The notes under the pieces were generated by a model. The model searched no databases. It was not told the origin of the DNA and saw nothing but the letters and a program-made list of their open reading frames with translations. Shown here one piece after another: positions 52,297 to 64,000 of a stretch of DNA of 64,000 nucleotides. The stretch lies in the sequence record NC_047770.1, one strand, 5' to 3'. The translations under genes were made by a program, and so were the position numbers. Origin of the DNA: Escherichia phage ESCO13. Each line of letters opens with the position of its first letter. Position 1 is the first letter of the stretch.

Positions 52297-52480
52297 GAAT
52301 TTACAAAAGTGAAAGTTGAAAACCAAAATTTAAAGTTTAGGAAAATTATCTTAAAATGTCAGATACAAAACAAAACTCAAAAGTCAAGGAAAATTTTAAA
52401 AATTTTGCGCGCCCACAGTATTTAAAGTTTTTTTGCTTTTACAAAAATGAAAGTACAAAAGCAAAATTTAAAGTTTACAA
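52297..52480. repeat. AT-rich iteron-like repeat zone
   Basis: About seven copies of (G/T)AAAGT(T/C/A) with A-tracts; two ~40-bp imperfect direct repeats (TACAAAAGTGAAAGTTGAAAACCAAAATTTAAAGTTTAG and TACAAAAATGAAAGTACAAAAGCAAAATTTAAAGTTTAC). Confidence 0.45.
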
Positions 52481-52497
52481 AAATTTTTATGCAGGTG

Positions 52498-52606
52498 AGA
52501 ATGAGAAGAGTTCTCATATGGAAATGCAAATGATAATGATTCGCATTTAAGTTTATAAATGAGATTGATTCTTATTTAATAAGGTAAATGATAATCATTC
52601 TCATTT
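52498..52606. promoter_or_regulatory. array of four phased 21-bp Fur-box-like palindromes
   Basis: Boxes start at 52498, 52528, 52557, 52586 (29-30 bp period): gAATGAgAagagTTCTCATat, AAATGATAATGATTCGCATTT, AAATGAGATTGATTCTTATTT, AAATGATAATCATTCTCATTT; the last contains AATGATAATCATT, the core of the Fur consensus GATAATGATAATCATTATC. Confidence 0.45.
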
Positions 52607-52865
52607 AGAGAATGACGCGCAGGGGCGGTGTTTGTCTCGCGCTCCCGTGTCCCCTCGCCATGTAATAAGAATAACAGATCCAGCCAGGAAAGCAAGCGAT
52701 TATTTTATCTTTACATTTCTTTACAAATATAGAGCGCCCAGCCTACCGGCGATCAACCTTCCAACCAGTGCCCCCTGGTATGTTAGCCCCGCCTTTACGC
52801 CGTGGGGTGGCGCTTCCTCTTCTGTATGTAAAACAGTATAAGCCCGATCCCTGGGCTTGTCAAGA

Positions 52866-53241: not shown

Positions 53242-53299
53242 TTGACGTTCGCCAGGTGGCGGCATAATATTTACCACGTAGGGCGGCAATGGTGCCGCT
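53242..53299 (+). promoter_or_regulatory. promoter-hairpin cassette 1
   Basis: TTGACG-N17-TAATAT-TTACCACG-TAGGGCGGCAATGGTGCCGCT. Confidence 0.6.
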
Positions 53300-53319
53300 C
53301 ATTATTTGGAGTTAAAATC

Positions 53320-53517
53320 ATGGCAACATTGCACATTGTGGCGAAAGCTGGACAAATAAACGTGGTAGTAAACGGTTTTACTGAGTTCAGTCATCCCCAG
53401 GATGATCATGAAACGGTTTTATCTTTCATTGATTCACTGTTAGAAATGGGAGTAATTACAGAAGACCAGCACGGTACAAAATGCAAGCGCGTTAATCAAA
53501 TTGCAGGAATAGAATAA
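53320..53517 (+). CDS. small hypothetical protein
   Basis: 65 aa MATLHIVAKAGQ...; ATG after RBS GGAG, not the upstream TTG of the track ORF. Confidence 0.55.
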   Translation: MATLHIVAKAGQINVVVNGFTEFSHPQDDHETVLSFIDSLLEMGVITEDQHGTKCKRVNQIAGIE

Positions 53518-53523
53518 AAACTA

Positions 53524-53582
53524 TTGACAACAAACAACAACCTGATAAGATGTATCACATAGGGCGGGAAGTGGTTTCCCGC
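53524..53582 (+). promoter_or_regulatory. promoter-hairpin cassette 2
   Basis: TTGACA-N16-TAAGAT-GTATCACA-TAGGGCGGGAAGTGGTTTCCCGC. Confidence 0.6.
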
Positions 53583-53607
53583 TCGTAACAGAAGAGAGAT
53601 TATCATC

Positions 53608-53880
53608 ATGGCATCATATAGCGCAACAATGATCGTAGCTGGCACAACTGGTAAACCTATGAGCGGTGGCGGATCTTTCGCTAATATCAATATTGACGGG
53701 CGTTTATCCCTGGACGCAGCGATCGCTATTGCACGGGAAACATTTAAGAAAGAATGTAATTTCAACAAGCAAGATTATCTCGGTTTCGCTATTGAAAAAA
53801 CCGCGCGCTTTGTTGATTATAAAAGCCCGAAAATGGTTGATACTACACTAAAAGCGCAAGATGTAGCGTTTTTGCTTTAA
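53608..53880 (+). CDS. small hypothetical protein
   Basis: 90 aa; RBS AGAAGAGAG. Confidence 0.55.
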   Translation: MASYSATMIVAGTTGKPMSGGGSFANINIDGRLSLDAAIAIARETFKKECNFNKQDYLGFAIEKTARFVDYKSPKMVDTTLKAQDVAFLL

Positions 53881-53883
53881 GGC

Positions 53884-53939
53884 TTGACATTAACGAATAA
53901 TTTGTTAATATGTTACATAAAGCGGGAATAGTTCCCGCT
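53884..53939 (+). promoter_or_regulatory. promoter-hairpin cassette 3
   Basis: TTGACA-N16-TAATAT-GTTACATA-AAGCGGGAATAGTTCCCGCT. Confidence 0.6.
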
Positions 53940-53956
53940 ATTTGTAAGGTGGTAGA

Positions 53957-54214
53957 ATGTTTTACATCAAATTAAAAGGTCACGTGATCGCGTTCAAAGA
54001 TAACGCTTTTTACAGATTAGCAAAATATGCGTTAATACATCCCCACTATGTTTATATAAGGAGGCGTGATGAAATAAATATCTTTGATCAAACAACATGC
54101 GAGAACATCGAGATCCGCAAGGTTGGCGTACGTGATTATCGTACATCTTTCTACCCTTGCAAGGATTCAGCAAGTCTTTTTAAAGTATGCCAATTGTTGA
54201 AAAAAGGTGGTTAA
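53957..54214 (+). CDS. small hypothetical protein
   Basis: 85 aa; RBS AAGGTGG. Confidence 0.55.
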   Translation: MFYIKLKGHVIAFKDNAFYRLAKYALIHPHYVYIRRRDEINIFDQTTCENIEIRKVGVRDYRTSFYPCKDSASLFKVCQLLKKGG

Positions 54215-54215
54215 T

Positions 54216-54773
54216 ATGGGCCGCGAATATGTGATCCAGTCTTGGGTAAAACATGAAGCAGATGATCCGCGCATCATTCCCGATCATCTTATCGATGAAT
54301 CCACGGGATATAGCGGTGAGCAAATAGGTAACAGATTAGCACGTAGTAACGGCAACGTAAAAGCGCGTTATGTGCGCCCTGGCTGGCTGGCAAATGGTAA
54401 CGCTGATTTATCCAGTGCGGAAGATGCGAGCGACGGCGCGAAAGATAATCCTTTGTACAAAGTTGATCCGGCTTTTCGTGTCCTGGATGAATACCCCAGC
54501 AAGATAGCGGCGCTCGATCAGGCCCTGGAAAGTAAGCGCATCACCTGGACCGCTTACAACATGGCAAAAAACGTACTTGATGGTAAATTGATTCAAGCTG
54601 AAAGAAAATTAGCCAAAATTGCAGCCATAGCCCAGGAGGAAGACGAGGAGACAACGGAAGAGGAAGAGTACGAAGAGATCCCGCCGTTGTTGTGTGTTGA
54701 TGCTTTTCCTGATTATCAGCCGACAGAGGAAGAAAAAAGGATCGCACTAGAAAACTTTGAAAATAGTCTTTGA
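54216..54773 (+). CDS. hypothetical protein with acidic C-terminal region
   Basis: 185 aa from the ATG at 54216 (RBS AAAGGTGG); second cistron of cassette 3; EEDEETTEEEEYEE stretch. Confidence 0.55.
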   Translation: MGREYVIQSWVKHEADDPRIIPDHLIDESTGYSGEQIGNRLARSNGNVKARYVRPGWLANGNADLSSAEDASDGAKDNPLYKVDPAFRVLDEYPSKIAALDQALESKRITWTAYNMAKNVLDGKLIQAERKLAKIAAIAQEEDEETTEEEEYEEIPPLLCVDAFPDYQPTEEEKRIALENFENSL

Positions 54774-54827
54774 CATATCGCCGCCACTGGCATAATATTT
54801 ACCACGTAGGGCGGCAATGGTGCCGCT
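54770..54827 (+). promoter_or_regulatory. promoter-hairpin cassette 4
   Basis: TTGACA (overlapping the upstream stop)-N17-TAATAT-TTACCACG-TAGGGCGGCAATGGTGCCGCT; near-identical to cassette 1. Confidence 0.6.
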
Positions 54828-54855
54828 CATAGTGAAATTATGCAAGAGGCTTACA

Positions 54856-54951
54856 ATGATTAATAAAGAAAATAGCTTGACGGTTGGAACGATTAACGCT
54901 ATCATTCTAGCCGTTCCATTTTGGATTGTAGTAGCGGCTATTATTTTCTAA
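54856..54951 (+). CDS. hydrophobic micro-protein (31 aa)
   Basis: MINKENSLTVGTINAIILAVPFWIVVAAIIF; RBS AGAGG 6 nt upstream. Confidence 0.4.
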   Translation: MINKENSLTVGTINAIILAVPFWIVVAAIIF

Positions 54952-54959
54952 AAATATTC

Positions 54960-55020
54960 TTGACAACGTTTTTTAATCTGATAAGATGTATCACATAGGG
55001 CGGCGGAATACTTCCCCGCC
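54960..55020 (+). promoter_or_regulatory. promoter-hairpin cassette 5
   Basis: TTGACA-N16-TAAGAT-GTATCACA-TAGGGCGGCGGAATACTTCCCCGCC. Confidence 0.6.
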
Positions 55021-55041
55021 AAAACAAAAAAGGGTAACACA

Positions 55042-55404
55042 ATGAGCAAGCAAATCAATACTATCATGTTAAACCTGGTATCCTTCCGCGATGATATGAA
55101 AAATTTACCACGTGAAACGGTTGATATTCATGTTTCAGCTTATCGCGCCCTTATTGACATGTTACCGCTAAAACGTGATCAACATGCCGCTAACATGATG
55201 CTTAATGCTATGCTTAAAAAGATGATTCAAACGGATCTCATCCTGGCGTATGAGTATCAAGGGCGCTTATATGCTACTTACAACAAGGCGGTACCTGGTC
55301 TGGGAAGTACCGAAGAGTTGCACGGCTTAAACCTGGATCAGAACACTTGGGATAGTATGCGCCGCGTTATGGTATGGGCCGAAAGCGGTAAAATTTACGA
55401 ATAA
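55042..55404 (+). CDS. hypothetical protein
   Basis: 120 aa. Confidence 0.55.
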   Translation: MSKQINTIMLNLVSFRDDMKNLPRETVDIHVSAYRALIDMLPLKRDQHAANMMLNAMLKKMIQTDLILAYEYQGRLYATYNKAVPGLGSTEELHGLNLDQNTWDSMRRVMVWAESGKIYE

Positions 55405-55409
55405 AACGG

Positions 55410-55466
55410 TTGACACTGTTTAAAATTCTGGTATAGTTTATCACGTAGGGCGGCAATGGTGCCGCC
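55410..55466 (+). promoter_or_regulatory. promoter-hairpin cassette 6
   Basis: TTGACA-N16-TATAGT-TTATCACG-TAGGGCGGCAATGGTGCCGCC. Confidence 0.6.
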
Positions 55467-55486
55467 AACAATAAAAGGTTAACATC

Positions 55487-55666
55487 ATGACTATCATTGC
55501 AAAAACTGAGATTATAGGTTTAGATTCGATCCTCCTGGCTTATGAGGAAACTTTAAAAATGTATGTAGTGACCTATGGTGATTATGTGCGTGAATACGAA
55601 TACATTGATCTTGCTTTCGAATGTTACATTCGCCAGGTCAATAAAGCCTATAACGATTATCGTTAA
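55487..55666 (+). CDS. small hypothetical protein (59 aa)
   Basis: MTIIAKTEIIGLDSILLAYEETLKMYVVTYGDY...; below the track cutoff. Confidence 0.45.
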   Translation: MTIIAKTEIIGLDSILLAYEETLKMYVVTYGDYVREYEYIDLAFECYIRQVNKAYNDYR

Positions 55667-55685
55667 AAGTTTTAGTCTTATACTA

Positions 55686-55738
55686 TTGACAATGAGTGAT
55701 AGTATAAGCATAATAACTTTTATCGGGAATACTTCCCA
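55686..55738 (+). promoter_or_regulatory. promoter-hairpin cassette 7 (variant)
   Basis: TTGACA-N17-CATAAT ... CGGGAATACTTCCC. Confidence 0.5.
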
Positions 55739-55763
55739 CTAACCAAAAAAAGAGAGTAATATC

Positions 55764-56129
55764 ATGGCTATTAATATCAATGTTTCCTCTTATGCTACCC
55801 TGGCTGACACGGCTAAAATTGAATTATCCAGCATTGAGGCGGTGCATATTAGCGCCCGTCGTTGGTTTCAACAGTCCTACGGTAACACATATTTTTCTTT
55901 AATGGTTGACGTTGAGATCGGCGGTAAACTGATCGAGGTGGTTAACGTTCCGTTTCAATATGGTTATGGTGATCATTTTGATACCGTCGCCCTGGAAGAA
56001 TTTAGCAAGGTTATTAATATGGAAGGTAAAGAGTTTTCACGCGGCGCGTATCTTTCCCGTTTTTGCCGTGACAATGGGATCACTGTATACAGTCATGCAA
56101 GCGATGTTAAACGTAAAAAAGATTTATAA
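55764..56129 (+). CDS. hypothetical protein
   Basis: 121 aa; RBS AGAGAG. Confidence 0.55.
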   Translation: MAININVSSYATLADTAKIELSSIEAVHISARRWFQQSYGNTYFSLMVDVEIGGKLIEVVNVPFQYGYGDHFDTVALEEFSKVINMEGKEFSRGAYLSRFCRDNGITVYSHASDVKRKKDL

Positions 56130-56135
56130 AAAGCA

Positions 56136-56194
56136 TTGACAGCACGAATAAAAAGAGTAAACTGTATTACATAGAGAGCGGGAACACTTCCCGC
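56136..56194 (+). promoter_or_regulatory. promoter-hairpin cassette 8
   Basis: TTGACA-N16-TAAACT-GTATTACA-TAGAGAGCGGGAACACTTCCCGC. Confidence 0.55.
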
Positions 56195-56218
56195 CTCACT
56201 GAAAAAGAGATTAACATC

Positions 56219-56458
56219 ATGGCTAAATCAAAAATGTTCTTAGGTCACAAAAATAAAACTCATTGGAATGTAAGCCTTTGGATTAATAACGACGAATCAT
56301 TATATCGGTTGGCGAAAGAATTTATCGCCGCTAATACTAATCGTAATGATGCTGCCCGTGATATGATGTTATTCCTGGAACAAACTGGACAAGATAAAAC
56401 TCCAGACGGTTTCAAGTATAGTAAAACTGCAATCCGTGCCGCGATGGTTGGAATGTAA
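56219..56458 (+). CDS. small hypothetical protein
   Basis: 79 aa. Confidence 0.55.
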   Translation: MAKSKMFLGHKNKTHWNVSLWINNDESLYRLAKEFIAANTNRNDAARDMMLFLEQTGQDKTPDGFKYSKTAIRAAMVGM

Positions 56459-56467
56459 TAAAAACAG

Positions 56468-56526
56468 TTGACAACGTTTAAAATTAGTGTAAGATGTATC
56501 ACATAGGGCGGGAAATGGTTTCCCGC
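56468..56526 (+). promoter_or_regulatory. promoter-hairpin cassette 9
   Basis: TTGACA-N16-TAAGAT-GTATCACA-TAGGGCGGGAAATGGTTTCCCGC. Confidence 0.6.
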
Positions 56527-56549
56527 TCACAACAGAGAGATTAAAGATT

Positions 56550-56777
56550 ATGGCTATCAATATTGTTCGCGTATCCGGCACCGTTGGCTATTCCCAGGTT
56601 GTAGCAGTTGTAACAAACAAAAAGATTAATGATGTATGTGAGATCTTGAATAAGTGGGCTATTGCTAATTTTGGAGAATATGCAAGCGTCGAGTACATCG
56701 AATCCTACCAGGTGCCGACCATCAGCCTAACCGATCTCAACGTTGATCGCCTGTTATGCCTGGATGAATTAAACTAA
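56550..56777 (+). CDS. small hypothetical protein
   Basis: 75 aa. Confidence 0.55.
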   Translation: MAINIVRVSGTVGYSQVVAVVTNKKINDVCEILNKWAIANFGEYASVEYIESYQVPTISLTDLNVDRLLCLDELN

Positions 56778-56784
56778 AATAATA

Positions 56785-56841
56785 TTGACAAGATAACTAA
56801 AATCAGTAAAATGTAATGCATAGGGCGGCAATAGTGCCGCT
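56785..56841 (+). promoter_or_regulatory. promoter-hairpin cassette 10
   Basis: TTGACA-N16-TAAAAT-GTAATGCA-TAGGGCGGCAATAGTGCCGCT. Confidence 0.6.
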
Positions 56842-56863
56842 CATAGTAAGAGGGATTATCAAA

Positions 56864-57079
56864 ATGGCTAATATCCGCACACTGTTAAAAAATGCAAGTC
56901 AAGTTTTATTTTCAGATGACGAGTATTTCAATAAAGACATTACAGGCGTGAAAAATTTAAAAGACGTTAAGGATGTAATAGGTATTCGAGGATCTTTACG
57001 TAAAGGTGACTACTACGGCAATAAAGTACAATATAAATTAAATCAGTCTTATGATTTTACTTTGACAATTATTTCATAA
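56864..57079 (+). CDS. small hypothetical protein
   Basis: 71 aa from MANIRTLLK (RBS AAGAGGGA). Confidence 0.55.
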   Translation: MANIRTLLKNASQVLFSDDEYFNKDITGVKNLKDVKDVIGIRGSLRKGDYYGNKVQYKLNQSYDFTLTIIS

Positions 57080-57085
57080 AACCGC

Positions 57086-57147
57086 TTGCAATCTTAATAA
57101 AATAAAGTAAACTGTATTACATCAAGGCGGCGGAATGGTCCACCGCC
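57086..57147 (+). promoter_or_regulatory. promoter-hairpin cassette 11
   Basis: TTGCAA-N16-TAAACT-GTATTACA-TCAAGGCGGCGGAATGGTCCACCGCC. Confidence 0.55.
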
Positions 57148-57171
57148 TAACAAAGAGAAGAGGAAAACATC

Positions 57172-57339
57172 ATGATCACTTTCGCTACCCGTGAAGCCGC
57201 TCGCAACGTTGCCCGTAAAGTTAACGCCGCCAACCTGGGCGCTACGCTTAAAGCCCCTGTAAAAGATGAATCAGGAAAATGGATCTTCCCTGGTCTGCGT
57301 CATGCTGACAAGTTAGGTACTTTAAGCCTTAAAAAATAA
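57172..57339 (+). CDS. small basic protein (55 aa)
   Basis: MITFATREAARNVARKVNAANLGATLKAPVKDESGKWIFPGLRHADKLGTLSLKK; below the track cutoff. Confidence 0.45.
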   Translation: MITFATREAARNVARKVNAANLGATLKAPVKDESGKWIFPGLRHADKLGTLSLKK

Positions 57340-57342
57340 TCG

Positions 57343-57380
57343 TTGACTTTTCGTTATAGCGCCTTATAATGGGCGCTATA
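57343..57380 (+). promoter_or_regulatory. consensus promoter TTGACT-N16-TATAAT inside a 9-bp inverted repeat
   Basis: TATAGCGCC-TTATAATG-GGCGCTATA (57355-57380) brackets the -10 hexamer; operator-like. Confidence 0.5.
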
Positions 57381-57413
57381 GAGAAGAGAAACCACTACTA
57401 ACAAGGAAACATC

Positions 57414-57635
57414 ATGATCACTTTCGCTATTGTCGCCGTTGTCGCTGGTCAGGTTTACATAAACGATACATTCACCACAGAAGACAAGGCCGCAGGAGAC
57501 ATAACCGCCGTTTACAATGAGTGCAAGGCAGTAGAAAGGATGTTAGCGCCTTGTATGCTAATGAGTGAACGCCAGGACGGGATAACAGTATTTACTAACA
57601 TTGAAACAGGGTACCAAATGGTAGTAACAAAATAA
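57414..57635 (+). CDS. small hypothetical protein
   Basis: 73 aa; shares the MITFA N-terminus with the preceding ORF. Confidence 0.55.
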   Translation: MITFAIVAVVAGQVYINDTFTTEDKAAGDITAVYNECKAVERMLAPCMLMSERQDGITVFTNIETGYQMVVTK

Positions 57636-57638
57636 AGC

Positions 57639-57695
57639 TTGACACGGATTTAATTTTTAGTAAACTGTTACACGTAGGGCGGGAATAGTTCCCGC
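57639..57695 (+). promoter_or_regulatory. promoter-hairpin cassette 13
   Basis: TTGACA-N16-TAAACT-GTTACACG-TAGGGCGGGAATAGTTCCCGC. Confidence 0.6.
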
Positions 57696-57714
57696 TCAAA
57701 AAGAGAGAAAGACC

Positions 57715-58068
57715 ATGAAAGCACAAAATGCAATTAAAGAGTACATCCTTGCCGCTATCGATTTTAATGATTACGGTATTACAACCGAAAAAGAGAAGAT
57801 CGCGGAATTGATGCGCCGTTTTAATTCCGAGTACTGGTACCCTGATAACCAATCACGTTTTAATTATAGTATTGTTAAAGCACTTGCATCATGGTTACAA
57901 GGCTTGCCATCAGATATCAATATCGCTTTCGAATATTGGGAAATTGATCGCCTGTTAACATCCTGGGGATACATTAAAGAGAATAGCAGCGATGATAAAA
58001 TCCAACGAGAAAGGGAAAATTATTGGCTTTATATTGCAGGCGTGATCCTTGCTTGCTCTTATGAATGA
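57715..58068 (+). CDS. hypothetical protein
   Basis: 117 aa. Confidence 0.55.
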   Translation: MKAQNAIKEYILAAIDFNDYGITTEKEKIAELMRRFNSEYWYPDNQSRFNYSIVKALASWLQGLPSDINIAFEYWEIDRLLTSWGYIKENSSDDKIQRERENYWLYIAGVILACSYE

Positions 58069-58074
58069 TAAACC

Positions 58075-58128
58075 TTGACAATTTTACAAAACAGTTTAAA
58101 TTAACAATATAGCGGCAATGGTGCCGCT
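58075..58128 (+). promoter_or_regulatory. promoter-hairpin cassette 14
   Basis: TTGACA-N16-TAAATT-AACAATAT-AGCGGCAATGGTGCCGCT. Confidence 0.55.
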
Positions 58129-58147
58129 CATATGAAGAGGAAACAAA

Positions 58148-58294
58148 ATGAATACATCTAATCGCGCAGAAAAAATTCAATCTTCCAAGATCCGCAAGGC
58201 CTGGAACGAGGAAGTGATCCGCAAAGGCGACAAGCGCAATAAAACAAAGCGCGGGAAGAGTGACAAATATAATTGGATGGATTTAGAGGATTAA
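58148..58294 (+). CDS. small basic protein (48 aa)
   Basis: MNTSNRAEKIQSSKIRKAWNEEVIRKGDKRNKTKRGKSDKYNWMDLED; RBS GAAGAGGAA. Confidence 0.45.
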   Translation: MNTSNRAEKIQSSKIRKAWNEEVIRKGDKRNKTKRGKSDKYNWMDLED

Positions 58295-58303
58295 CATAAC
58301 AAG

Positions 58304-58329
58304 GGGCGCACCAAGCGCCCTTTCTTTTT
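58304..58329 (+). terminator. rho-independent terminator
   Basis: GGGCGC-ACCAA-GCGCCC followed by TTTCTTTTT. Confidence 0.6.
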
Positions 58330-58350
58330 ACATGTAGAGGATAAACAAAG

Positions 58351-58536
58351 ATGACTTTAAGCGAGCTTAAAACAGCCTACAACGCAACGTTAAAAATAGC
58401 CGTGCGTTACCGTGACGAATACGGTTTTATTGCGCAGGGCGTGATCCTGGGCTTTTCTGACGATGGTTTGATCTATGTTGATGCACATCACAATAAGGTT
58501 AAACCTGAAAACGTCATTAGCATAAAATATCTTTAA
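58351..58536 (+). CDS. small hypothetical protein
   Basis: 61 aa; RBS GAGGA; no own promoter seen (read-through?). Confidence 0.5.
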   Translation: MTLSELKTAYNATLKIAVRYRDEYGFIAQGVILGFSDDGLIYVDAHHNKVKPENVISIKYL

Positions 58537-58542
58537 AAGTGG

Positions 58543-58600
58543 TTGACACCATAACCGGACCTGTTAAACTGTATTACATCAGGCGGGGAATAGTTCCCAC
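58543..58600 (+). promoter_or_regulatory. promoter-hairpin cassette 15
   Basis: TTGACA-N16-TAAACT-GTATTACA-TCAGGCGGGGAATAGTTCCCACC. Confidence 0.55.
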
Positions 58601-58620
58601 CATACAAAAAGGTAAATATT

Positions 58621-58827
58621 ATGATCACCGCAAAACAAGAAAAAATCATTATCGACGTTGCAGCCGTTGCCGCTATTGCTATTATTGGATCTTATTATGA
58701 CACCGCGCGTCCTTCCTCCTTGCATGAGGTCGCCGCCGTTGCATCAGTTGGCGTACTGTTTTACGTTGGTAAACGCTATTTATCACCAATGATTAACAAG
58801 CTGACACCGTGGAAAAATAAAGGTTGA
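58621..58827 (+). CDS. small membrane protein
   Basis: 68 aa; hydrophobic stretches IIIDVAAVAAIAIIGSYY and VAAVASVGVLFYV. Confidence 0.55.
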   Translation: MITAKQEKIIIDVAAVAAIAIIGSYYDTARPSSLHEVAAVASVGVLFYVGKRYLSPMINKLTPWKNKG

Positions 58828-58883
58828 TCCTGTTTTATATTGTGTTATAGTTATCGTGTAGGGCGGCAATGGTGCCGCGCCCT
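58824..58883 (+). promoter_or_regulatory. promoter-hairpin cassette 16
   Basis: TTGATC (overlapping the upstream stop)-N16-TATAGT-TATCGTG-TAGGGCGGCAATGGTGCCGCGCCC. Confidence 0.55.
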
Positions 58884-58898
58884 TTTGAGGATGCAATC

Positions 58899-59183
58899 AT
58901 GAGTAAAGCTAACACCGTGCTAATGTTTTCCCTGATTAATGATTCCGCTTACTTGTCCAACATGACGCAGGAGGGTAACACATTAACGGCAACATTCACC
59001 AATAAGCTTGACCGGGTGATCATCGTCTCACTGAAAACAGTTAGTAAAGGCTTTTACTCGTTAGCTTATCATTGGATCACCGATACCGATGAGACAAGCC
59101 AGGACTATAGCACCCCTTTCCCTGAATCAATGGCACGGGAGGTCATCGCCGCCGTTGTAAATGATGGTTTGTTTACTGCATAA
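58899..59183 (+). CDS. hypothetical protein
   Basis: 94 aa from MSKANTVLMFSL. Confidence 0.55.
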   Translation: MSKANTVLMFSLINDSAYLSNMTQEGNTLTATFTNKLDRVIIVSLKTVSKGFYSLAYHWITDTDETSQDYSTPFPESMAREVIAAVVNDGLFTA

Positions 59184-59201
59184 AATAATTTAGAAAAAGG
59201 C

Positions 59202-59258
59202 TTGCAATCATTTTGAGATAGTGTATATTTAATTCATAGGGCGGCGGGAATAGTTCCC
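59202..59258 (+). promoter_or_regulatory. promoter-hairpin cassette 17
   Basis: TTGCAA-N16-TATATT-TAATTCA-TAGGGCGGCGGGAATAGTTCCC. Confidence 0.55.
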
Positions 59259-59281
59259 AAAGCAAACGAGAGGATTACACG

Positions 59282-59401
59282 ATGAGCAAGTACACAGTAG
59301 AATACACGGTAGAAAATCCGGCAGTATCCGAAGGTAAAAAGATGACATTTGCCATCAGTATAATCGCTTTCGTTATCACTATCTTATCAATCATCTTATA
59401 A
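59282..59401 (+). CDS. micro-protein with C-terminal TM helix (39 aa)
   Basis: MSKYTVEYTVENPAVSEGKKMTFAISIIAFVITILSIIL; RBS GAGAGG. Confidence 0.4.
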   Translation: MSKYTVEYTVENPAVSEGKKMTFAISIIAFVITILSIIL

Positions 59402-59411
59402 GGTGCGTACT

Positions 59412-59573
59412 ATGAAAACAACAGACATTATCAAAGAGATCGCCCTTGCCGCTGACGTTGAGATCGAGGAAGTGATCGCGCTCAACCTTACAGAAAACGA
59501 TCTGCGCAACTATGAAGCGGAAAGCGTGAAAGCAAGCGGCGCGGTCCTGGCATATAATCCGGCTAACAAGTAA
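59412..59573 (+). CDS. small acidic protein (53 aa)
   Basis: MKTTDIIKEIALAADVEIEEVIALNLTENDLRNYEAESVKASGAVLAYNPANK; RBS AAGGTG. Confidence 0.4.
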   Translation: MKTTDIIKEIALAADVEIEEVIALNLTENDLRNYEAESVKASGAVLAYNPANK

Positions 59574-59582
59574 GGGGATAAC

Positions 59583-59693
59583 ATGAATCCGAAAGATATG
59601 CAAGCATGGAAAGGGTACGACGATCTAAGCGCCTTGCGCAATAAGTCAAGCCGTAACCTTAGACGGTTGGAAGCAAAGAAAAAGAAAAAATAG
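59583..59693 (+). CDS. small basic protein (36 aa)
   Basis: MNPKDMQAWKGYDDLSALRNKSSRNLRRLEAKKKKK; RBS AAGGGGA. Confidence 0.35.
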   Translation: MNPKDMQAWKGYDDLSALRNKSSRNLRRLEAKKKKK

Positions 59694-59694
59694 T

Positions 59695-59751
59695 TTGACA
59701 AGTCCGCCTAGTCTGATAATATGTATCTTGTAGGGCGGCAATGGTGCCGCT
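59695..59751 (+). promoter_or_regulatory. promoter-hairpin cassette 18
   Basis: TTGACA-N16-TAATAT-GTATCTTG-TAGGGCGGCAATGGTGCCGCT. Confidence 0.6.
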
Positions 59752-59771
59752 CACAAGAAGAGAGAAAAATC

Positions 59772-60056
59772 ATGAAAATCACAAAAAGCCTAACTAATTA
59801 TGCAGCACGTCGCGGATTATGTTTAACCGTTGAAAACTTAGGGAAAGAAGACTTTTTGTGTTTTTGGGAGCTTGAAAATGATTGCGAGTGGATGTTTTCT
59901 TATTCTATCTGCGAAGATCAAAACGGTTGTTTGTTAACCTGGCGCGGTAATATCTATTTACCGGAAGAAATTAAAGAAGAGTTACCAGGTACGATCATGA
60001 CAGAGAGACAGCTTAAGGAAGTGATCAATTTTGTAGGGCAAAACATTAAAAAATAA
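59772..60056 (+). CDS. Cys-rich hypothetical protein
   Basis: 94 aa from MKITKSLTNYAARRG; several Cys. Confidence 0.55.
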   Translation: MKITKSLTNYAARRGLCLTVENLGKEDFLCFWELENDCEWMFSYSICEDQNGCLLTWRGNIYLPEEIKEELPGTIMTERQLKEVINFVGQNIKK

Positions 60057-60057
60057 T

Positions 60058-60119
60058 TTGACAGTAGGCAAACAACGTAGTAAAGTTTATTACATAGAGC
60101 GGCGGAATGGTCCACCGCT
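60058..60119 (+). promoter_or_regulatory. promoter-hairpin cassette 19
   Basis: TTGACA-N17-TAAAGT-TTATTACA-TAGAGCGGCGGAATGGTCCACCGCT. Confidence 0.55.
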
Positions 60120-60141
60120 CACAACAGAAGAGAAACAAATC

Positions 60142-60312
60142 ATGATCCCGACTATGTTTTATGTATCGCGCAAAGGTCACAATATTTTTTGGTCTGAAGA
60201 TTTAAATGAAGCTATGACGTTTGCCCGTGATCGTGTTGCTATCGGTGGCGTTAATATCACCGTGACCGATGAAAACGGCATTGAATACTATAACGGCGAT
60301 GATGAAGAGTAA
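60142..60312 (+). CDS. small hypothetical protein (56 aa)
   Basis: MIPTMFYVSRKGHNIFWSEDLNEAMTFARDRVAIGGVNITVTDENGIEYYNGDDEE. Confidence 0.5.
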   Translation: MIPTMFYVSRKGHNIFWSEDLNEAMTFARDRVAIGGVNITVTDENGIEYYNGDDEE

Positions 60313-60318
60313 TCAACA

Positions 60319-60338
60319 AGGCGGGATTAATCCCGCCT
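60319..60338 (+). other. perfect 20-bp palindrome AGGCGGGATTAATCCCGCCT (promoter-less intercistronic hairpin)
   Basis: Preceded by TAATCAACAA; no -35/-10 pair and no U-tract. Confidence 0.5.
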
Positions 60339-60356
60339 ATATTAAAGGGTAATACA

Positions 60357-60494
60357 ATGAAAACTTTCAACGCAACAGCCTCGACAATTGGTTATATTAT
60401 TACAGTGCAAGCCGTGGATCTGGTAGCAGCAGCAAACAAGATTAAAAAGATGATCCCGCCAGGTAGTGAATTTTCCGTTTGGGAAGTAAAATAA
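60357..60494 (+). CDS. small hypothetical protein (45 aa)
   Basis: MKTFNATASTIGYIITVQAVDLVAAANKIKKMIPPGSEFSVWEVK; RBS AAAGGG. Confidence 0.4.
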   Translation: MKTFNATASTIGYIITVQAVDLVAAANKIKKMIPPGSEFSVWEVK

Positions 60495-60497
60495 ACC

Positions 60498-60559
60498 TTG
60501 ACAATAATTTGTTATCTGATAAAGTGTATTACGTAGGGCGGGGCAATGGTGCAACGCCC
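60498..60559 (+). promoter_or_regulatory. promoter-hairpin cassette 21
   Basis: TTGACA-N16-TAAAGT-GTATTACG-TAGGGCGGGGCAATGGTGCAACGCCC. Confidence 0.55.
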
Positions 60560-60577
60560 ATTAATGAGGGTAGAATC

Positions 60578-60682
60578 ATGTTAGAGAAAATTTTCACGGT
60601 TGTAATAGTGGGCCTGGCGTTATCGGTTGGAGTGGTTGCAACTATGGCTAACATGATCCTATCTTCCCACGGTATCGGTTAA
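60578..60682 (+). CDS. hydrophobic micro-protein (34 aa)
   Basis: MLEKIFTVVIVGLALSVGVVATMANMILSSHGIG; RBS GAGGG. Confidence 0.4.
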   Translation: MLEKIFTVVIVGLALSVGVVATMANMILSSHGIG

Positions 60683-60692
60683 GGTGAAACAA

Positions 60693-60908
60693 ATGATCAC
60701 GAACAAAACAGGCAAAACGGAATTTTTACGCGGCTTACAAGTTGGTAAGCCTGAGATCTGGCATTGCACGAAGTCCGCGCATAATGAAATGAAAGATTTC
60801 ACCGCTACTTTACAACGTGTTAAAATATCTATTACGCAGAAAAAAGCCTTATTAGTAGTAGAAAACGAGATCCCGCAAACCATTATTATTGTCGAGCGTA
60901 CAGCATGA
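60693..60908 (+). CDS. small hypothetical protein
   Basis: 71 aa from MITNKTGKTE (RBS AAGGTGA). Confidence 0.5.
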   Translation: MITNKTGKTEFLRGLQVGKPEIWHCTKSAHNEMKDFTATLQRVKISITQKKALLVVENEIPQTIIIVERTA

Positions 60909-61291
60909 AAACAGAAATCATTAACGAAATCATCAACGGCTATAAAGAAGCCTTTATTTTTGCTGAATCAGCAAGGGATCATGAAGGTAATTTTATAGAT
61001 GACATGACTGATTATGATTTTTCAGATCAAGCCCATCAACGGATCGCCCAGGATGTAACAGCCTTTATTAATGCTAATCTTGCCGCTATCTCTGAGGCAA
61101 TGAGCGACGGCGCAACAGCCAACCAGATCGGGAATGATTTACATTTTACCCGTAACGGTCACGGCGTAGGATTTTGGGATCGCCCTGAAATATACACCAC
61201 TAACACGGCGAACCGCCTAACAAATGCAGCTAAGTTTATGCCGAACGTGTCGGCTTACATTGGTGAAGATAATTTGATTTATATTGAATAA
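60905..61291 (+). CDS. hypothetical protein
   Basis: 128 aa; ATGA overlap. Confidence 0.55.
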   Translation: MKTEIINEIINGYKEAFIFAESARDHEGNFIDDMTDYDFSDQAHQRIAQDVTAFINANLAAISEAMSDGATANQIGNDLHFTRNGHGVGFWDRPEIYTTNTANRLTNAAKFMPNVSAYIGEDNLIYIE

Positions 61292-61297
61292 AAAGTA

Positions 61298-61354
61298 TTG
61301 ACACAGATCGCCAGTGTGCTAATATTTACCACGTAGGGCGGCAATGGTGCCGCC
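61298..61354 (+). promoter_or_regulatory. promoter-hairpin cassette 22
   Basis: TTGACA-N16-TAATAT-TTACCACG-TAGGGCGGCAATGGTGCCGCC. Confidence 0.6.
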
Positions 61355-61372
61355 GATAATGAGGAAAATAAA

Positions 61373-61672
61373 ATGGAAACTATCGCTATTGTTACCGTAG
61401 AAAAACTGGTTGTTGGTGATGTGTTCGCGTTAATGGTGCCTAACAGCAGCAAACTGGGCGCTTATGAAGTGATGGACCATAAAAATGAATCATTTGGCGA
61501 CGGTTGCACAATGGCGGTAAAATCCTTAAAGGATGGAATCATCCGCCAGGCTAACTGGCACAAAGGGAATCAAGTCGGTTTAATATCAGCTAATTTCTTG
61601 CCAGAAGAGCAAACGTTAGACCAACTATCAGGCGGTAAGACGTTAGCCGAACTACTGGAAACAGCGATCTAA
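61373..61672 (+). CDS. hypothetical protein
   Basis: 99 aa; RBS GAGGAAAA. Confidence 0.55.
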   Translation: METIAIVTVEKLVVGDVFALMVPNSSKLGAYEVMDHKNESFGDGCTMAVKSLKDGIIRQANWHKGNQVGLISANFLPEEQTLDQLSGGKTLAELLETAI

Positions 61673-61680
61673 TCAACAAA

Positions 61681-61696
61681 GGGGCGGCAACGCCCC
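61681..61696 (+). other. promoter-less intercistronic hairpin GGGGCG-GCAA-CGCCCC
   Basis: Preceded by TAATCAACAAA; no U-tract. Confidence 0.45.
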
Positions 61697-61716
61697 ACAT
61701 CAGAAAGGAAAAGATT

Positions 61717-61953
61717 ATGAGTATTGCAACAGTATTAAACGCCGTTAAAACCGCTGAATCATCCGGCTTGCATGTTGAGCTTATAGATCAACCAGGTGGC
61801 GATCTCCTTGTCCAGGTTTACCCGCCGAAAGTAGGGGATGATTATTATTGGGCTTATTCTGATACGTTCGAACAAGTAGACACGAAAGCGATCACGGCTT
61901 TTATTTTAAAAGCTATTGAAGAAAATAACTTTCATCATAACATCAATCAATAA
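61717..61953 (+). CDS. small hypothetical protein
   Basis: 78 aa. Confidence 0.55.
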   Translation: MSIATVLNAVKTAESSGLHVELIDQPGGDLLVQVYPPKVGDDYYWAYSDTFEQVDTKAITAFILKAIEENNFHHNINQ

Positions 61954-61962
61954 ACCATAAGC

Positions 61963-61978
61963 GGGGCGGTAACGCCCC
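61963..61978 (+). other. promoter-less intercistronic hairpin GGGGCG-GTAA-CGCCCC
   Basis: Same hairpin family as 61681-61696. Confidence 0.45.
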
Positions 61979-62007
61979 ATTAAACGCAATAGGAAGAGGA
62001 TAGACGC

Positions 62008-62292
62008 ATGAAAAACATGATCGCAGTAGTTGCCCTAGTTGTTGGTATTAACGCGCCTGTACTGGCTAATGAGTTGCCAGAATCCATCACGTTAACCGAT
62101 ATCAACGCAGTGAACCGGATCGGTGTTAATTATCGCCTATGCCTTGCCGCTAAAACTTTCCAGGATGGCACAACAGAGTACTACGGATTCGAGGGTATCC
62201 GGTGCGGTGAGCTTGCACGCGACCTTAAGGAAGATCCAGACCTTGAGGCCATACCGATGACCGTAAACGGTAAAGCTTACGTAAGCCGCTAA
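62008..62292 (+). CDS. secreted/periplasmic small protein
   Basis: 94 aa; signal peptide MKNMIAVVALVVGINAPVLA. Confidence 0.55.
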   Translation: MKNMIAVVALVVGINAPVLANELPESITLTDINAVNRIGVNYRLCLAAKTFQDGTTEYYGFEGIRCGELARDLKEDPDLEAIPMTVNGKAYVSR

Positions 62293-62294
62293 CC

Positions 62295-62429
62295 ATGAGA
62301 AAGGTAATCATCACAATGGGGATCGTAGTAGCAACGCTGGCGCTTATTCCCTTCATGGTTGAACATGTGCTGATCAATGTTGTCCTGGTAGTCAGCGACC
62401 TATTAGAAACGGTTGGCAACTGGTTTTAA
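62295..62429 (+). CDS. hydrophobic micro-protein (44 aa)
   Basis: MRKVIITMGIVVATLALIPFMVEHVLINVVLVVSDLLETVGNWF; starts 2 nt after the upstream stop. Confidence 0.4.
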   Translation: MRKVIITMGIVVATLALIPFMVEHVLINVVLVVSDLLETVGNWF

Positions 62430-62438
62430 GATAAATAA

Positions 62439-62468
62439 ACAGGGCTTGCAATAGTCCTGTTTTTTGTT
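62439..62468 (+). terminator. rho-independent terminator
   Basis: ACAGGGC-TTGCAATA-GTCCTGT followed by TTTTTTGTT. Confidence 0.55.
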
Positions 62469-62606
62469 ATACTTATTGAACGGGCGGCACCTGGGAGCAG
62501 GGGAAGATAATCACCGGAAGACCCCGCTATATATATTGATAGCTAACACCTATCAAACAACAAAACATCAAAGAGATAAACTATCAAATCTTTACAATCC
62601 CACCTA

Positions 62607-62664
62607 TTGACACCGGATCACGCTTACATTATTATTTATCACGTAGGGCGGGAATGTTTCCCAC
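62607..62664 (+). promoter_or_regulatory. promoter-hairpin cassette 24
   Basis: TTGACA-N17-TATTAT-TTATCACG-TAGGGCGGGAATGTTTCCCAC. Confidence 0.55.
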
Positions 62665-62683
62665 CTGATTTAGGAGTCATATC

Positions 62684-62917
62684 ATGATCGAACAAATTAA
62701 AAGCACTACACCAAATGTTAACGGTAATGTTTCTCACTTTATCGGGGATAATGAAAGAGGTACACCGTACGCCGCCGTAACCGTTCAACCTAACGGGGAT
62801 TATTGGTTTACCGTGTACGGATCTTACTCTTTTGGACGTTCGGCACATGATAAGATCTTGCAAGTGGTTAAGCCTACTGGGAAGAATATCACAGCAGAAA
62901 AATTTTATAAAAAATAA
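62684..62917 (+). CDS. small hypothetical protein
   Basis: 77 aa; RBS AGGAG. Confidence 0.55.
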   Translation: MIEQIKSTTPNVNGNVSHFIGDNERGTPYAAVTVQPNGDYWFTVYGSYSFGRSAHDKILQVVKPTGKNITAEKFYKK

Positions 62918-62918
62918 C

Positions 62919-62978
62919 TTGCTTTATAGCTCCTGTTAACTTATAGTTATTGCGTAGGGCGAGCAATACAGCAAGCCC
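62919..62978 (+). promoter_or_regulatory. promoter-hairpin cassette 25 (degenerate)
   Basis: TTGCTT-N17-TATAGT-TATTGCG-TAGGGCGAGCAATACAGCAAGCCC. Confidence 0.45.
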
Positions 62979-62995
62979 ACAAAGAGGAAAATAAA

Positions 62996-63364
62996 ATGAG
63001 CAAATCAGCAATTAAAGCACTTGAAAAAGCACAAGAAGTGATCGCAACGTCAACCACTGGCGCAAAGGTTAATCTCGTTGGTTATCTGACAGATGAAACT
63101 ATCCGTAAAAATTGGCGTAATGCTGATTTACTGGCTTGCTTATTGATTAATAGTGTCGCTAATGCTTTCCAGTGTGAAACAGCCGAGAGCCTGGAGGAAA
63201 ACTTGTTTGATAATATGGATCAAGCCATTGAAACCTATATTCAATCAAATTTAGATAGCTGGAACAGTAAAACATGGCCCGACAATTTACGCGATACAAC
63301 TGATCAACTGATCCGCCTTGCCCTGATGGTTGAACGCGATAACGTTCACAACCGCACAAAGTAA
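62996..63364 (+). CDS. hypothetical protein
   Basis: 122 aa; RBS AAGAGGAAA. Confidence 0.55.
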   Translation: MSKSAIKALEKAQEVIATSTTGAKVNLVGYLTDETIRKNWRNADLLACLLINSVANAFQCETAESLEENLFDNMDQAIETYIQSNLDSWNSKTWPDNLRDTTDQLIRLALMVERDNVHNRTK

Positions 63365-63375
63365 GATTATACAAG

Positions 63376-63395
63376 GGGCGCACTAAGCGCCCTTT
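63376..63395 (+). terminator. hairpin / weak terminator
   Basis: GGGCGC-ACTAA-GCGCCC followed by a short TTT; same hairpin family as 58304 and 63940. Confidence 0.4.
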
Positions 63396-63422
63396 AACGT
63401 AAAGAAATGTAAATAATGCGCT

Positions 63423-63459
63423 ATCCCCTATTGACAGGGGATCGGCGTTATATTATATT
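63423..63459 (+). promoter_or_regulatory. sigma70 promoter TTGACA-N17-TATATT with an inverted repeat over the -35
   Basis: ATCCCCT-ATTGAC-AGGGGAT (63423-63442) flanks the -35; no 5-prime hairpin. Confidence 0.5.
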
Positions 63460-63504
63460 TAACTCACTGGCAGCAAACAACGAAACGAAACAAAGGATAA
63501 CACT

Positions 63505-63924
63505 ATGAACATTAAATCAAATAATCCAGCTTACTCCTTCGATAACGCTTTTTGTCACGGTAGCGCCGCCAAAGGCTTCGAAATCGATGGTAAATTGGTT
63601 ATCGTGAACGTTGACGGGGAAGAGGTTGCAGTGTATCCGGTAAACGATGTTAAAAGCCGTTTACAATGCCGCATGGATGTTACCGCATATCAGCTTGATC
63701 CGGTCCGTGTAGTTGCCCTGGTGTTAGAGGAAGAGATCAAAGCAATGCATCACAGTAATAAGTTTATTGGTGACGCGCAGGATAATATGAACGTTTGCCG
63801 CCATAAAGTTAATGAAGCATTGAAAGAATGCGGTTTTAAGGATCTGATGATTAAACGTGATGAAAAATTCCGCTTTCGTAATGACCTGGCAAACCGGATC
63901 TACTCAATCTATGAAGCGTTATAA
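63505..63924 (+). CDS. hypothetical protein
   Basis: 139 aa; RBS AAAGGA. Confidence 0.55.
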   Translation: MNIKSNNPAYSFDNAFCHGSAAKGFEIDGKLVIVNVDGEEVAVYPVNDVKSRLQCRMDVTAYQLDPVRVVALVLEEEIKAMHHSNKFIGDAQDNMNVCRHKVNEALKECGFKDLMIKRDEKFRFRNDLANRIYSIYEAL

Positions 63925-63939
63925 TTGACAACAAAACAA

Positions 63940-63965
63940 GGGCGCACCAAGCGCCCTTTCTTTTT
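63940..63965 (+). terminator. rho-independent terminator
   Basis: GGGCGC-ACCAA-GCGCCC followed by TTTCTTTTT; near-identical to the terminator at 58304. Confidence 0.6.
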
Positions 63966-64000
63966 GCCCGAACAATGTTGATAGCTTTCGCCTATGAAAA

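Follow-up and report, generated by a model that had tools for sequence, protein, structure and literature searches.

The region at 53.2-63.5 kb of a 64,000-nt window from Escherichia phage ESCO13 (NC_047770.1; the window being the whole stretch analysed) carries on its plus strand an array of promoter-hairpin cassettes, each placed in front of one or a few small genes. The array is probably the variable early region of a Phapecoctavirus, composed of about 24 portable sigma70 expression cassettes that are analogous to the promoter-early-stem-loop (PeSL) cassettes of T4-type phages, but carry their stem-loop within the transcribed part. The phage is of the phAPEC8 type. In such phages promoter arrays as such are nothing unusual; the conserved geometry of the cassettes and their exchange between families are the notable part.

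Cassette anatomy and the genes served

Nineteen canonical and about five atypical cassettes of approximately 90 nt each, all in direct orientation, were found on the plus strand of the array. The motif TAGGGCGG occurred in 14 exact copies, all on the plus strand within 53279-62651, compared with 0.66 ± 0.88 in shuffled sequences, and the composite pattern TTGACA-N16/17-TAnnnT-N8-TAGnGC occurred 12 times in the window and never in shuffles. The 64 kb were also searched with a covariance model for which 15 cassettes from a single hairpin family served as seed. The model returned 19 matches on the plus strand (53242-62665) and one on the minus strand (31376-31437), with no further copies anywhere else in the window. 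Within the array, 15 of 23 strong sigma70-like sites were followed by a hairpin of −9 kcal/mol or below starting 8-13 nt past the −10 element; outside it, this was so for 3 of 87 sigma70-like sites, one of the three being the 31437 cassette. A preliminary description of the region had proposed a stereotyped promoter-hairpin module repeated before small genes, and both the shuffles and the covariance model bear this out. The cassettes are listed below, the numbered ones being those matched by the covariance model on the plus strand.

53242-53322, plus: cassette 1, TTGACG-17-TAATAT, hairpin 53281-53300 (GGGCGGCAATGGTGCCGCTC), ATG 53320; 61.5 bits
53524-53610, plus: cassette 2, TTGACA-16-TAAGAT, hairpin 53562-53584, ATG 53608
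53884-53959, plus: cassette 3, TTGACA-16-TAATAT, hairpin 53921-53939, ATG 53957, two genes
54770-54858, plus: cassette 4, −35 over the upstream TGA stop, hairpin 54809-54828, ATG 54856
54960-55044, plus: cassette 5, hairpin 54999-55020 (GGCGGCGGAATACTTCCCCGCC), ATG 55042
55410-55489, plus: cassette 6, hairpin 55449-55466, ATG 55487
55686-55766, plus: atypical, TTGACA-17-CATAAT, weak 5-bp hairpin 55725-55737, lacking the TAGGG motif; no model match
56136-56221, plus: cassette 8, hairpin 56174-56197 (GAGAGCGGGAACACTTCCCGCCTC)
56468-56552, plus: cassette 9, hairpin 56506-56528, ATG 56550; fold z −4.3
56785-56866, plus: cassette 10, hairpin 56823-56842, ATG 56864
57086-57174, plus: cassette 11, TTGCAA-16-TAAACT, hairpin 57125-57148, ATG 57172; 20 bits
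57343-57416, plus: atypical, TTGACT-16-TATAAT, inverted repeat TAGCGCC/GGCGCTA over the −10, no hairpin 3′ of it
57639-57717, plus: cassette 13, hairpin 57677-57697, ATG 57715
58075-58150, plus: cassette 14, hairpin 58111-58128, ATG 58148 (T7 gp1.1-like 48-aa gene)
58543-58623, plus: cassette 15, hairpin 58582-58601, ATG 58621
58824-58901, plus: cassette 16, −35 TTGATC over the upstream TGA stop, hairpin 58861-58880, ATG 58899
59202-59284, plus: degenerate, TTGCAA-16-TATATT, TAGGGCGG, imperfect hairpin 59241-59263, three genes
59695-59774, plus: cassette 18, hairpin 59733-59752, extendable to CTTGT.../...ACAAG, ATG 59772
60058-60144, plus: cassette 19, hairpin 60097-60120 (GAGCGGCGGAATGGTCCACCGCTC), ATG 60142; fold z −5.1
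60498-60580, plus: cassette 20, hairpin 60536-60559, ATG 60578, three genes
61298-61375, plus: cassette 21, hairpin 61337-61354, ATG 61373, four genes
62607-62686, plus: cassette 22, TTGACA-17-TATTAT, hairpin 62646-62666, ATG 62684
62919-62998, plus: atypical, weak −35 TTGCTT, TAGGGCGA, hairpin 62957-62978, ATG 62996
63431-63507, plus: promoter alone, TTGACA-17-TATATT, without hairpin, ATG 63505
31359-31437, minus: solitary cassette, TTGACA-16-TAAGAT, hairpin GCGGGGAATAGTTCCCCGC; 35.4 bits

The elements follow one another in the order A-rich UP-like tract, TTGACA, 16-17 nt spacer, TAnnnT −10, pyrimidine-purine start, hairpin, leader and ATG, and the consensus of 20 cassettes reads nnTnnnAaAAaAannn-TTGACA-N16-TAAaaT-gTAtcAC(A/G)-TAGGGC.... 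In 17 of 24 cassettes the −35 matched TTGACA perfectly, and spacers measured 16-17 nt; the promoters at 55686, 57343, 59202, 62919 and 63431 were atypical. At the nine positions 4-12 nt 5′ of the −35 the fraction of A was 0.63, compared with 0.31 window-wide. This tract usually holds the TAA of the upstream gene, and its position fits the proximal UP-element subsite. The conserved CAC(A/G) provides pyrimidine-purine steps at the 6th and 8th nt past the −10, which are the start positions preferred by E. coli RNA polymerase. Taking the 8th nt as the predicted start, the hairpin begins about 3 nt further on, and the distance from −10 to stem was 10 ± 1 nt in 16 of 20 cassettes, so that the proposed near-consensus sigma70 promoter with a leader hairpin at a fixed distance also held. 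Stems were 7-10 bp, loops 3-4 nt, and the distance from stem to ATG 15-27 nt (mean 19.4). The leader 3′ of the stem is purine-rich and unstructured, contains the ribosome site and usually ends in ATCATG. The cassettes are very likely functional early promoters.

Other details of the preliminary description required correction. The −35, said often to overlap the previous stop codon, did so in only 2 of 24 cassettes (54770 and 58824), the usual gap being 1-9 nt. One gene is served by 18 cassettes, two by three, three by two and four by one; the proposed range of one to three open reading frames (ORFs) therefore applied in 23 cases and not to the cassette with four. In place of two main hairpin families, at least five stem families were distinguished when those found in relatives were counted.

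The cassettes serve 34 small ORFs of 31-185 aa, located between 53320 and 63924 on the plus strand. PHROG families were assigned for 33 of the 34 proteins; 32 of these families have no assigned function, and that of the 39-aa ORF at 59282 is labelled 'membrane protein' only. Pfam recognised two array proteins, a DUF7249 protein (56219) and a 48-aa basic protein (58148-58294) that matched Phage_1_1 (T7 early protein gp1.1, function unknown) with E = 5e-13. A single weak PADLOC match (PDC-M10B, E = 1.9e-4) was obtained among the array proteins. The encoded proteins are thus, as had been described, small and of unknown function. An Srd-like or other RNA-targeting factor, which might explain a need for 5′ protection, was also sought among the array proteins and the ORFs at 45-52 kb, and none was recognised. 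At 57172-57190 and 57414-57432, two adjacent and otherwise unrelated genes agree exactly at the end of the leader and in their first codons (aacatcATGATCACTTTCGCTA, MITFA...); here cassette homology, or a recombination joint, appears to reach into coding sequence.

The hairpin as a candidate RNA element

When all 22 cassettes were aligned with plain MAFFT and passed to RNAalifold, no consensus structure emerged, since stems of unequal length had their 3′ arms misaligned. A covariance model of a single family, to which the other cassettes were then aligned anew, overcame this. The resulting model-guided alignment comprised 99 distinct cassettes, drawn from the window and six relatives; 95% of its stem cells were paired and five of eight pairs showed compensatory change, a signal that is biased towards structure because the alignment was fitted to the model. 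One stem pair was C-G in 44 sequences and G-C in 33, and another was G·U in 34 of 99. When the partner column was shifted by ±1-3, the pairing signal disappeared. Of 72 non-redundant cassettes, 56 had a sense strand that folded more stably than the antisense strand, and the mean advantage was 1.3 kcal/mol. Predicted 5′ untranslated regions contained one hairpin preceded by three unpaired 5′ nt, with the leader and ribosome site unpaired, and gave z values from −2.9 to −5.1.

Upstream of the orthologue of gene 53608, in five phages that are about 96% identical, three unrelated stem families were found, while the promoter was conserved and the leader nearly so. In SKA64 (L004 5078-5138), the site orthologous to 56785-56845 carries the reverse complement of the window's hairpin: the palindrome is inverted in place, with its arms swapped and a loop of CTAT vs ATAG. 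Independently of the fitted alignment, the sense-strand bias, the stem swaps at 53608 and the SKA64 inversion favour structure at the RNA level over a DNA operator. We consider with good confidence that the hairpin acts as an RNA-level structural element.

Several known classes of element were considered and rejected. Rfam gave no matches at the gathering threshold, and a tRNA scan none, in the whole window. Stems of 7-10 bp are too short for an RNase III site, which would require longer ones. For antitermination of the lambda nut or rrn boxA/boxB type, CGCTCACAACA after the stem faintly resembles boxA (GCTCTTTAACA) but is missing from most cassettes, and GGA loops of the CsrA type were absent from the cassette hairpins. 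An intrinsic (Rho-independent) terminator was rejected for lack of a U-tract after the stem: the 8 nt that follow contained a mean of 1.2 T in 86 non-redundant cassettes, and a terminator scan flagged a single cassette hairpin, that at 53281.

The hairpins also touch on annotation. Some are labelled as terminators in deposited genomes. The loop may carry an ATG (GGCAATGGTGCC) that opens a longer ORF, as in the window at 58869, vs the real-looking start at 58899. Both tuntematon_30 and the coding sequence 7058-7372 of Mt1B1_P17 begin at such a loop ATG (L001 8925; L002 7058), and an ATG with a ribosome site sits 30 nt 3′ of it. Start codons are thus systematically misannotated because the cassette loop carries an ATG.

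Terminators with a T-tract, and intergenic GC hairpins that have no promoter, were found as follows.

58301-58333, plus: intrinsic terminator, stem and T-tract, inside the array
62437-62472, plus: intrinsic terminator, 10-bp stem then TTTTTTGTT
63938-63968, plus: intrinsic terminator past the last gene in the window
60319-60338, plus: GC hairpin without promoter (AGGCGGGATTAATCCCGCCT), 18 nt 5′ of ATG 60357
61681-61696, plus: GC hairpin without promoter (GGGGCGGCAACGCCCC), about 20 nt 5′ of ATG 61717
61962-61979, plus: GC hairpin without promoter, 5′ of ATG 62008

The terminator at 62437 is followed by a non-coding stretch of about 160 nt (62446-62606) with an embedded promoter-like TTGCAA-16-TATACT, the first 100 nt or so of which are about 82% conserved even in the Vequintavirus FV3. 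A structured small RNA in this stretch was rejected, its fold not being significant (z = +0.75).

Distribution, exchange and genomic context

The stretch 53242-63459 matched Mt1B1_P17, tuntematon and other Phapecoctavirus members over its full length at 96-97% identity. Cassettes were also found well beyond this genus, and their sharing with phi92, Vequintavirus and the Asteriusvirus jumbo phages is an addition to the preliminary description. Phi92 (Justusliebigvirus) has the same cassettes, in at least 13 copies within 9 kb. The promoter-hairpin units of FV3, a Vequintavirus from another subfamily, have discriminators and stems of unrelated sequence but keep the spacing at 9-11 nt; two cassettes of the phAPEC8 type there flank the only two genes of the stretch that are not annotated as rV5-like. 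Arrays in fEgEco12 and 121Q (Asteriusvirus) follow the plan AGTACTTGCA-N16-TATAAT-gttttacatc-hairpin-leader-ATG. The −10-to-stem distance of 10 ± 1 nt thus recurs in phi92, FV3, 121Q and fEgEco12 despite differing discriminators, initial transcribed sequences and stems.

Parts of cassettes are shared as well as their geometry. One Asteriusvirus cassette family has the stem of window cassette 56136 (GAGAGCGGGAACACTTCCCGC), and one of its members a similar leader. Cassettes of phi92 and SKA64 are near-identical to those of Asteriusvirus from the −10 through the hairpin but have another −35, and so are chimeric. The jumbo-type cassette was present in at least 35 records, at up to 18 places per record. 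As for the genes, homologues of 5 of the 34 array proteins are encoded in those Asteriusvirus arrays that were sampled. Homologues of gene 55042 in jumbo coliphages of 350-375 kb are 58-63% identical, and the 79-aa DUF7249 protein (56219-56458) is 94-95% identical in 121Q and fEgEco12 (L007 2202-2441; L008 6401-6640). Such identity between a 150-kb Phapecoctavirus and a 350-kb Asteriusvirus points to recent transfer between families. Of the 34 array genes, 20 recur in phi92, where their order is partly permuted and amino-acid identity varies from one gene to the next (35-98%).

Four indel junctions were examined against close relatives. In tuntematon, Mt1B1_P17 and SKA64 a whole module of cassette and ORF directly follows a stop codon, where the window has none (59573/59574). 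A deletion in SKA64 joins cassette 55410 precisely to gene 55764 at ...catcATG, and at one of the four junctions both ends lie in leaders. In FV3, mosaic joints were seen inside cassette 9002. Divergence was patchy, the promoter, the stem or the leader being replaced in its entirety; hairpins as general mutation hotspots were rejected, their divergence being 4.2% vs 3.7-5.7% in the flanks. This sharing of cassette parts and of some orphan ORFs (ORFans) with unrelated large coliphages suggests that the cassette helps new genes to move between phages. A role for the cassettes in recombination and modular exchange is likely.

By the taxonomy of the matching phages, Phapecoctavirus belongs to the Stephanstirmvirinae, which are myoviruses of about 150 kb. 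This membership, and the family A polymerase gene listed below, agree with the earlier view that the genome is not T4-like. The main neighbouring features were these.

2.8-10.6 kb, plus: tail-spike genes
13293-15887, minus: family A DNA polymerase gene
52058-52865: AT-rich gene-free region of about 800 nt, directly 5′ of the array

The polymerase gene forms part of a leftward block for replication and nucleotide metabolism, together with primase-helicase, NrdD and a UvrD-type helicase. The solitary cassette at 31359-31437 lies on the minus strand within this block, upstream of a gene for a 324-aa membrane protein (30387-31361) of PHROG 7180, in the category 'moron/host takeover'. The region at 52058-52865 has a 138-nt direct repeat and iterons at 29-nt spacing (AAATGAnAnTnATTCnCATTTA). 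The iteron at 52584-52602 is within three mismatches of the E. coli Fur-box 19-mer (one match vs 0.05 expected), and the core GATAATCATTCTC is found again in phi92 and FV3. The region could be an origin, an iteron set or a Fur-binding site. Among database matches, the coliphage group was matched at 66-90% identity by some 20 records of 135-146 kb that lack annotation and are labelled 'Campylobacter phage' (MG0656xx), and also by one 'Acinetobacter' (96%) and one 'Pseudomonas' (88%) phage record. The host labels of these records look doubtful, or the isolates may be contaminated.

Comparison with known systems and possible function

The closest described systems are the PeSL cassettes of T4-type phages RB49/phi1, PST and nt-1 (Arbiol et al. 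2010, PMC2839356; Comeau et al. 2014, PMC4122927). Like these, the cassettes have an AT-rich tract that holds the stop codon of the preceding gene, an early promoter of sigma70 consensus type, and a G-then-C stem-loop with G·T pairs, in an intergenic motif of about 100 nt that ends in the Shine-Dalgarno sequence and start codon. They are likewise densely repeated between ORFans in a variable region that undergoes insertions, deletions and replacements between close relatives. Encapsidated mini-circles of cassette and ORF are a further feature of the T4-type PeSL. The host lineage here is a different one, the Stephanstirmvirinae with a family A polymerase, and cassette parts are common to unrelated phage families. 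The T4-type stem-loop varies among five positions, each of them ahead of the start, and serves as a terminator (PMC2839356), whereas the stem-loop here has one fixed position past any plausible start, within its own mRNA, and lacks a terminator-like U-tract. Only in cassette 57343, with its inverted repeat over the −10, is the PeSL-like position seen. The fixed, transcribed stem departs from one defining PeSL feature, so the cassette is not a strict PeSL, though it appears to work much like one. The resemblance noted in the preliminary description therefore stands for architecture, variable ORFan setting and evolutionary behaviour, and fails for stem-loop position and U-tract.

The hairpin itself resembles the 5′-terminal stabilising stem-loops of the ompA/papA type (Emory, Bouvet and Belasco 1992; Bricker and Belasco 1999, cited in PMC3997798), in which a stable, simple hairpin lies a few nt from the mRNA 5′ end and is followed by an unstructured leader and ribosome site. 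It differs in that 3-5 unpaired 5′ nt are predicted here, at or beyond the tolerated limit. It also differs in being repeated about 20 times in a mobile cassette, where the ompA-type element is a single-gene feature.

Arrays of RpoD-like early promoters with UP elements have been described in virulent myoviruses, both relatives and others: in Certrevirus CB7/CR3 (PMC7344957), rV5 (PMC3606486) and the jumbo phage CBB (PMC5259590), and 41-nt promoter repeats in PAK_P1-like phages (PMC4309531). The array shares with them near-identical sigma70 promoters after A-tracts, a putative early region of small genes, and a few copies near replication genes; the lone cassette at 31359-31437 echoes the few early-type promoters reported near replication genes in Certrevirus. 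Those descriptions mention no conserved transcribed hairpin, fixed −10-to-stem distance or sharing between families. Lambdoid morons are gained as units, each made up of a single gene with its promoter and terminator. The tuntematon module (59573/59574) is similarly a single ORF gained or lost with its own promoter, but morons are scattered and have no conserved flanking linker, while the units here are tandem, co-oriented and joined by the conserved cassette. A literature search found no description of this hairpin or of cross-family cassette sharing, although papers on PVP-SE1 or phi92 may mention either, and found the term 'PeSL' only in papers on T4-like phages. What is new here is a set of PeSL-like cassettes with a transcribed hairpin at a fixed position, common to at least three phage lineages.

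In the mechanism that we propose, unmodified host sigma70 RNA polymerase would fire all cassettes immediately upon infection, giving short, mostly monocistronic mRNAs. The hairpin would act in RNA: the GC-rich 5′ end would fold on itself and leave the leader and ribosome site open for any ORF, and would probably slow the decay that RppH and RNase E begin at the 5′ end; it would thus stabilise the mRNA, insulate the leader or do both. In read-through transcripts from the upstream unit, this hairpin would in addition lie near the 3′ end. Since they are directly repeated and common to several phage lineages, the cassettes probably act as homology patches through which ORFans and cassette sub-parts are deleted, replaced and moved, a view that the comparisons between phages support. 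That stabilising the 5′ end is the hairpin's main role is a tentative proposal, somewhat short of an even chance; 5′-end protection is plausible but borderline with three unpaired nt.

A number of observations weigh against parts of this account. The start site, early timing and promoter activity are all deduced from sequence. Unpaired 5′ nt are predicted to number three if transcription starts at the 8th nt past the −10 and five if at the 6th; RppH needs just 2-3 unpaired 5′ nt (PMC3997798) and RNase E bypasses orthogonal stem-loops (PMC9943677), so protection of the 5′ end may be weak. The promoter-less hairpins at 60319, 61681 and 61962 are of the cassette type and lie at the same distance from the ATG, and promoters without a hairpin occur at 63431, at 57343 and several times in 121Q; the hairpin is therefore neither strictly 5′-terminal nor obligatory. 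As to exchange, cassette parts diverge by 4-6%, equal to the flanking coding sequence. No cassette takes part in the indel junction at 62437, which adjoins a terminator, and at one of the module boundaries there is a stop codon in place of a second cassette. Indel ends necessarily fall between genes, where the DNA is nearly all cassette, which makes the location of breakpoints weak evidence on its own.

Other explanations of the stem-loop were weighed against this reading. It could be mainly a transcriptional attenuator or insulator of the T4-type PeSL kind, stopping or damping read-through from upstream so that each ORFan would be transcribed from its own promoter alone, with its presence in its own transcript incidental. 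A PeSL stem-loop reduced lacZ read-through as strongly as rrnB T1 (PMC2839356), and PeSL stems have the same polarity as the cassettes (G-rich 5′ arm, C-rich 3′ arm) and G·T pairs. Yet the 8 nt after the cassette stems are as poor in T as described above, in an array that has proper T-tract terminators elsewhere, even if the sequence after two hairpins (53301, 53940) is somewhat T-rich and one GenBank record (H147) labels such a hairpin 'terminator'. The promoter-less hairpins of the same type between cistrons would suit an attenuator; the spacing would not, as an upstream terminator needs no fixed distance to a downstream −10 and 10 ± 1 nt is kept in four lineages, whereas T4-like stem-loops vary in position and precede the start site. 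Were the stem-loop a strong terminator, its position at +4 to +25 would in addition cut short the transcripts of the cassette itself. We regard the attenuator explanation as improbable.

More improbable still is that the YRTAGGGCGG motif and stem-loop form a regulator site for an early regulon, whether in RNA, bound by a phage RNA-binding protein or cut by an endoribonuclease in the manner of T4 RegA/RegB, or as a palindromic DNA operator for early shut-off, placed shortly 3′ of the start site. Conservation does exceed the needs of the stem, TAGGGCGG being exact in 14 cassettes and the loops mostly AAT(G/A)GT in both main families, but this is expected anyway from common descent and gene conversion among copies. 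The span +3 to +25 is a classic operator or roadblock position; a DNA operator is nevertheless disfavoured by the frequent G·U pairs, which break DNA palindromy, and by the many coexisting stem families, which replace each other at orthologous sites. In FV3 and 121Q the loops and flanks are wholly different while the geometry is kept, and the window's early proteins included none that could be recognised as an RNA-binding protein or a nuclease. We give just as little weight to the view that the hairpin has no role in expression and is a self-propagating palindrome, or a signal for recombination only, that hitch-hikes with early promoters and owes its position to descent. The cassettes are clearly paralogous and exchanged in patches, inversion as a unit, as in SKA64, is typical of palindromes, and PeSL crossovers have been mapped within or beside the stem-loop. 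Against this, stems are kept intact through compensatory changes and replacement by unrelated stems, the −10 spacing persists in lineages whose surrounding sequence cannot be aligned, the cassette is as conserved as coding sequence, and the sense-strand bias and G·U pairs point to RNA.

An expression cassette with a transcribed stem-loop thus remains the preferred reading. As a design rule it would comprise a promoter, a hairpin from about +4 and an open, purine-rich leader, and could serve phage engineering and synthetic biology as a natural, compact insulator part. The array offers about 20 natural variants of one element, so hairpin function is directly testable with reporters. A bolder version, which we hold to be unlikely, is that the cassettes are a pan-lineage, horizontally mobile expression plug for ORFans of large virulent phages of enterobacteria, with the hairpin-leader unit as the conserved currency among Stephanstirmvirinae, Vequintavirinae and Asteriusvirus. 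In that case any acquired gene would receive immediate, context-independent early expression, and early mRNAs may be spared the phage-stimulated decay of host mRNA. Cassette recombination, possibly via mini-circles, would then be how host-takeover and anti-defence genes chiefly pass between unrelated phage families that meet in the same E. coli cells. The preferred reading, if right, would extend the PeSL idea beyond the T4-like phages and would provide a mechanism for the expression and trade, between unrelated coliphage families, of orphan early genes, the pool that yields host-takeover and anti-defence proteins.

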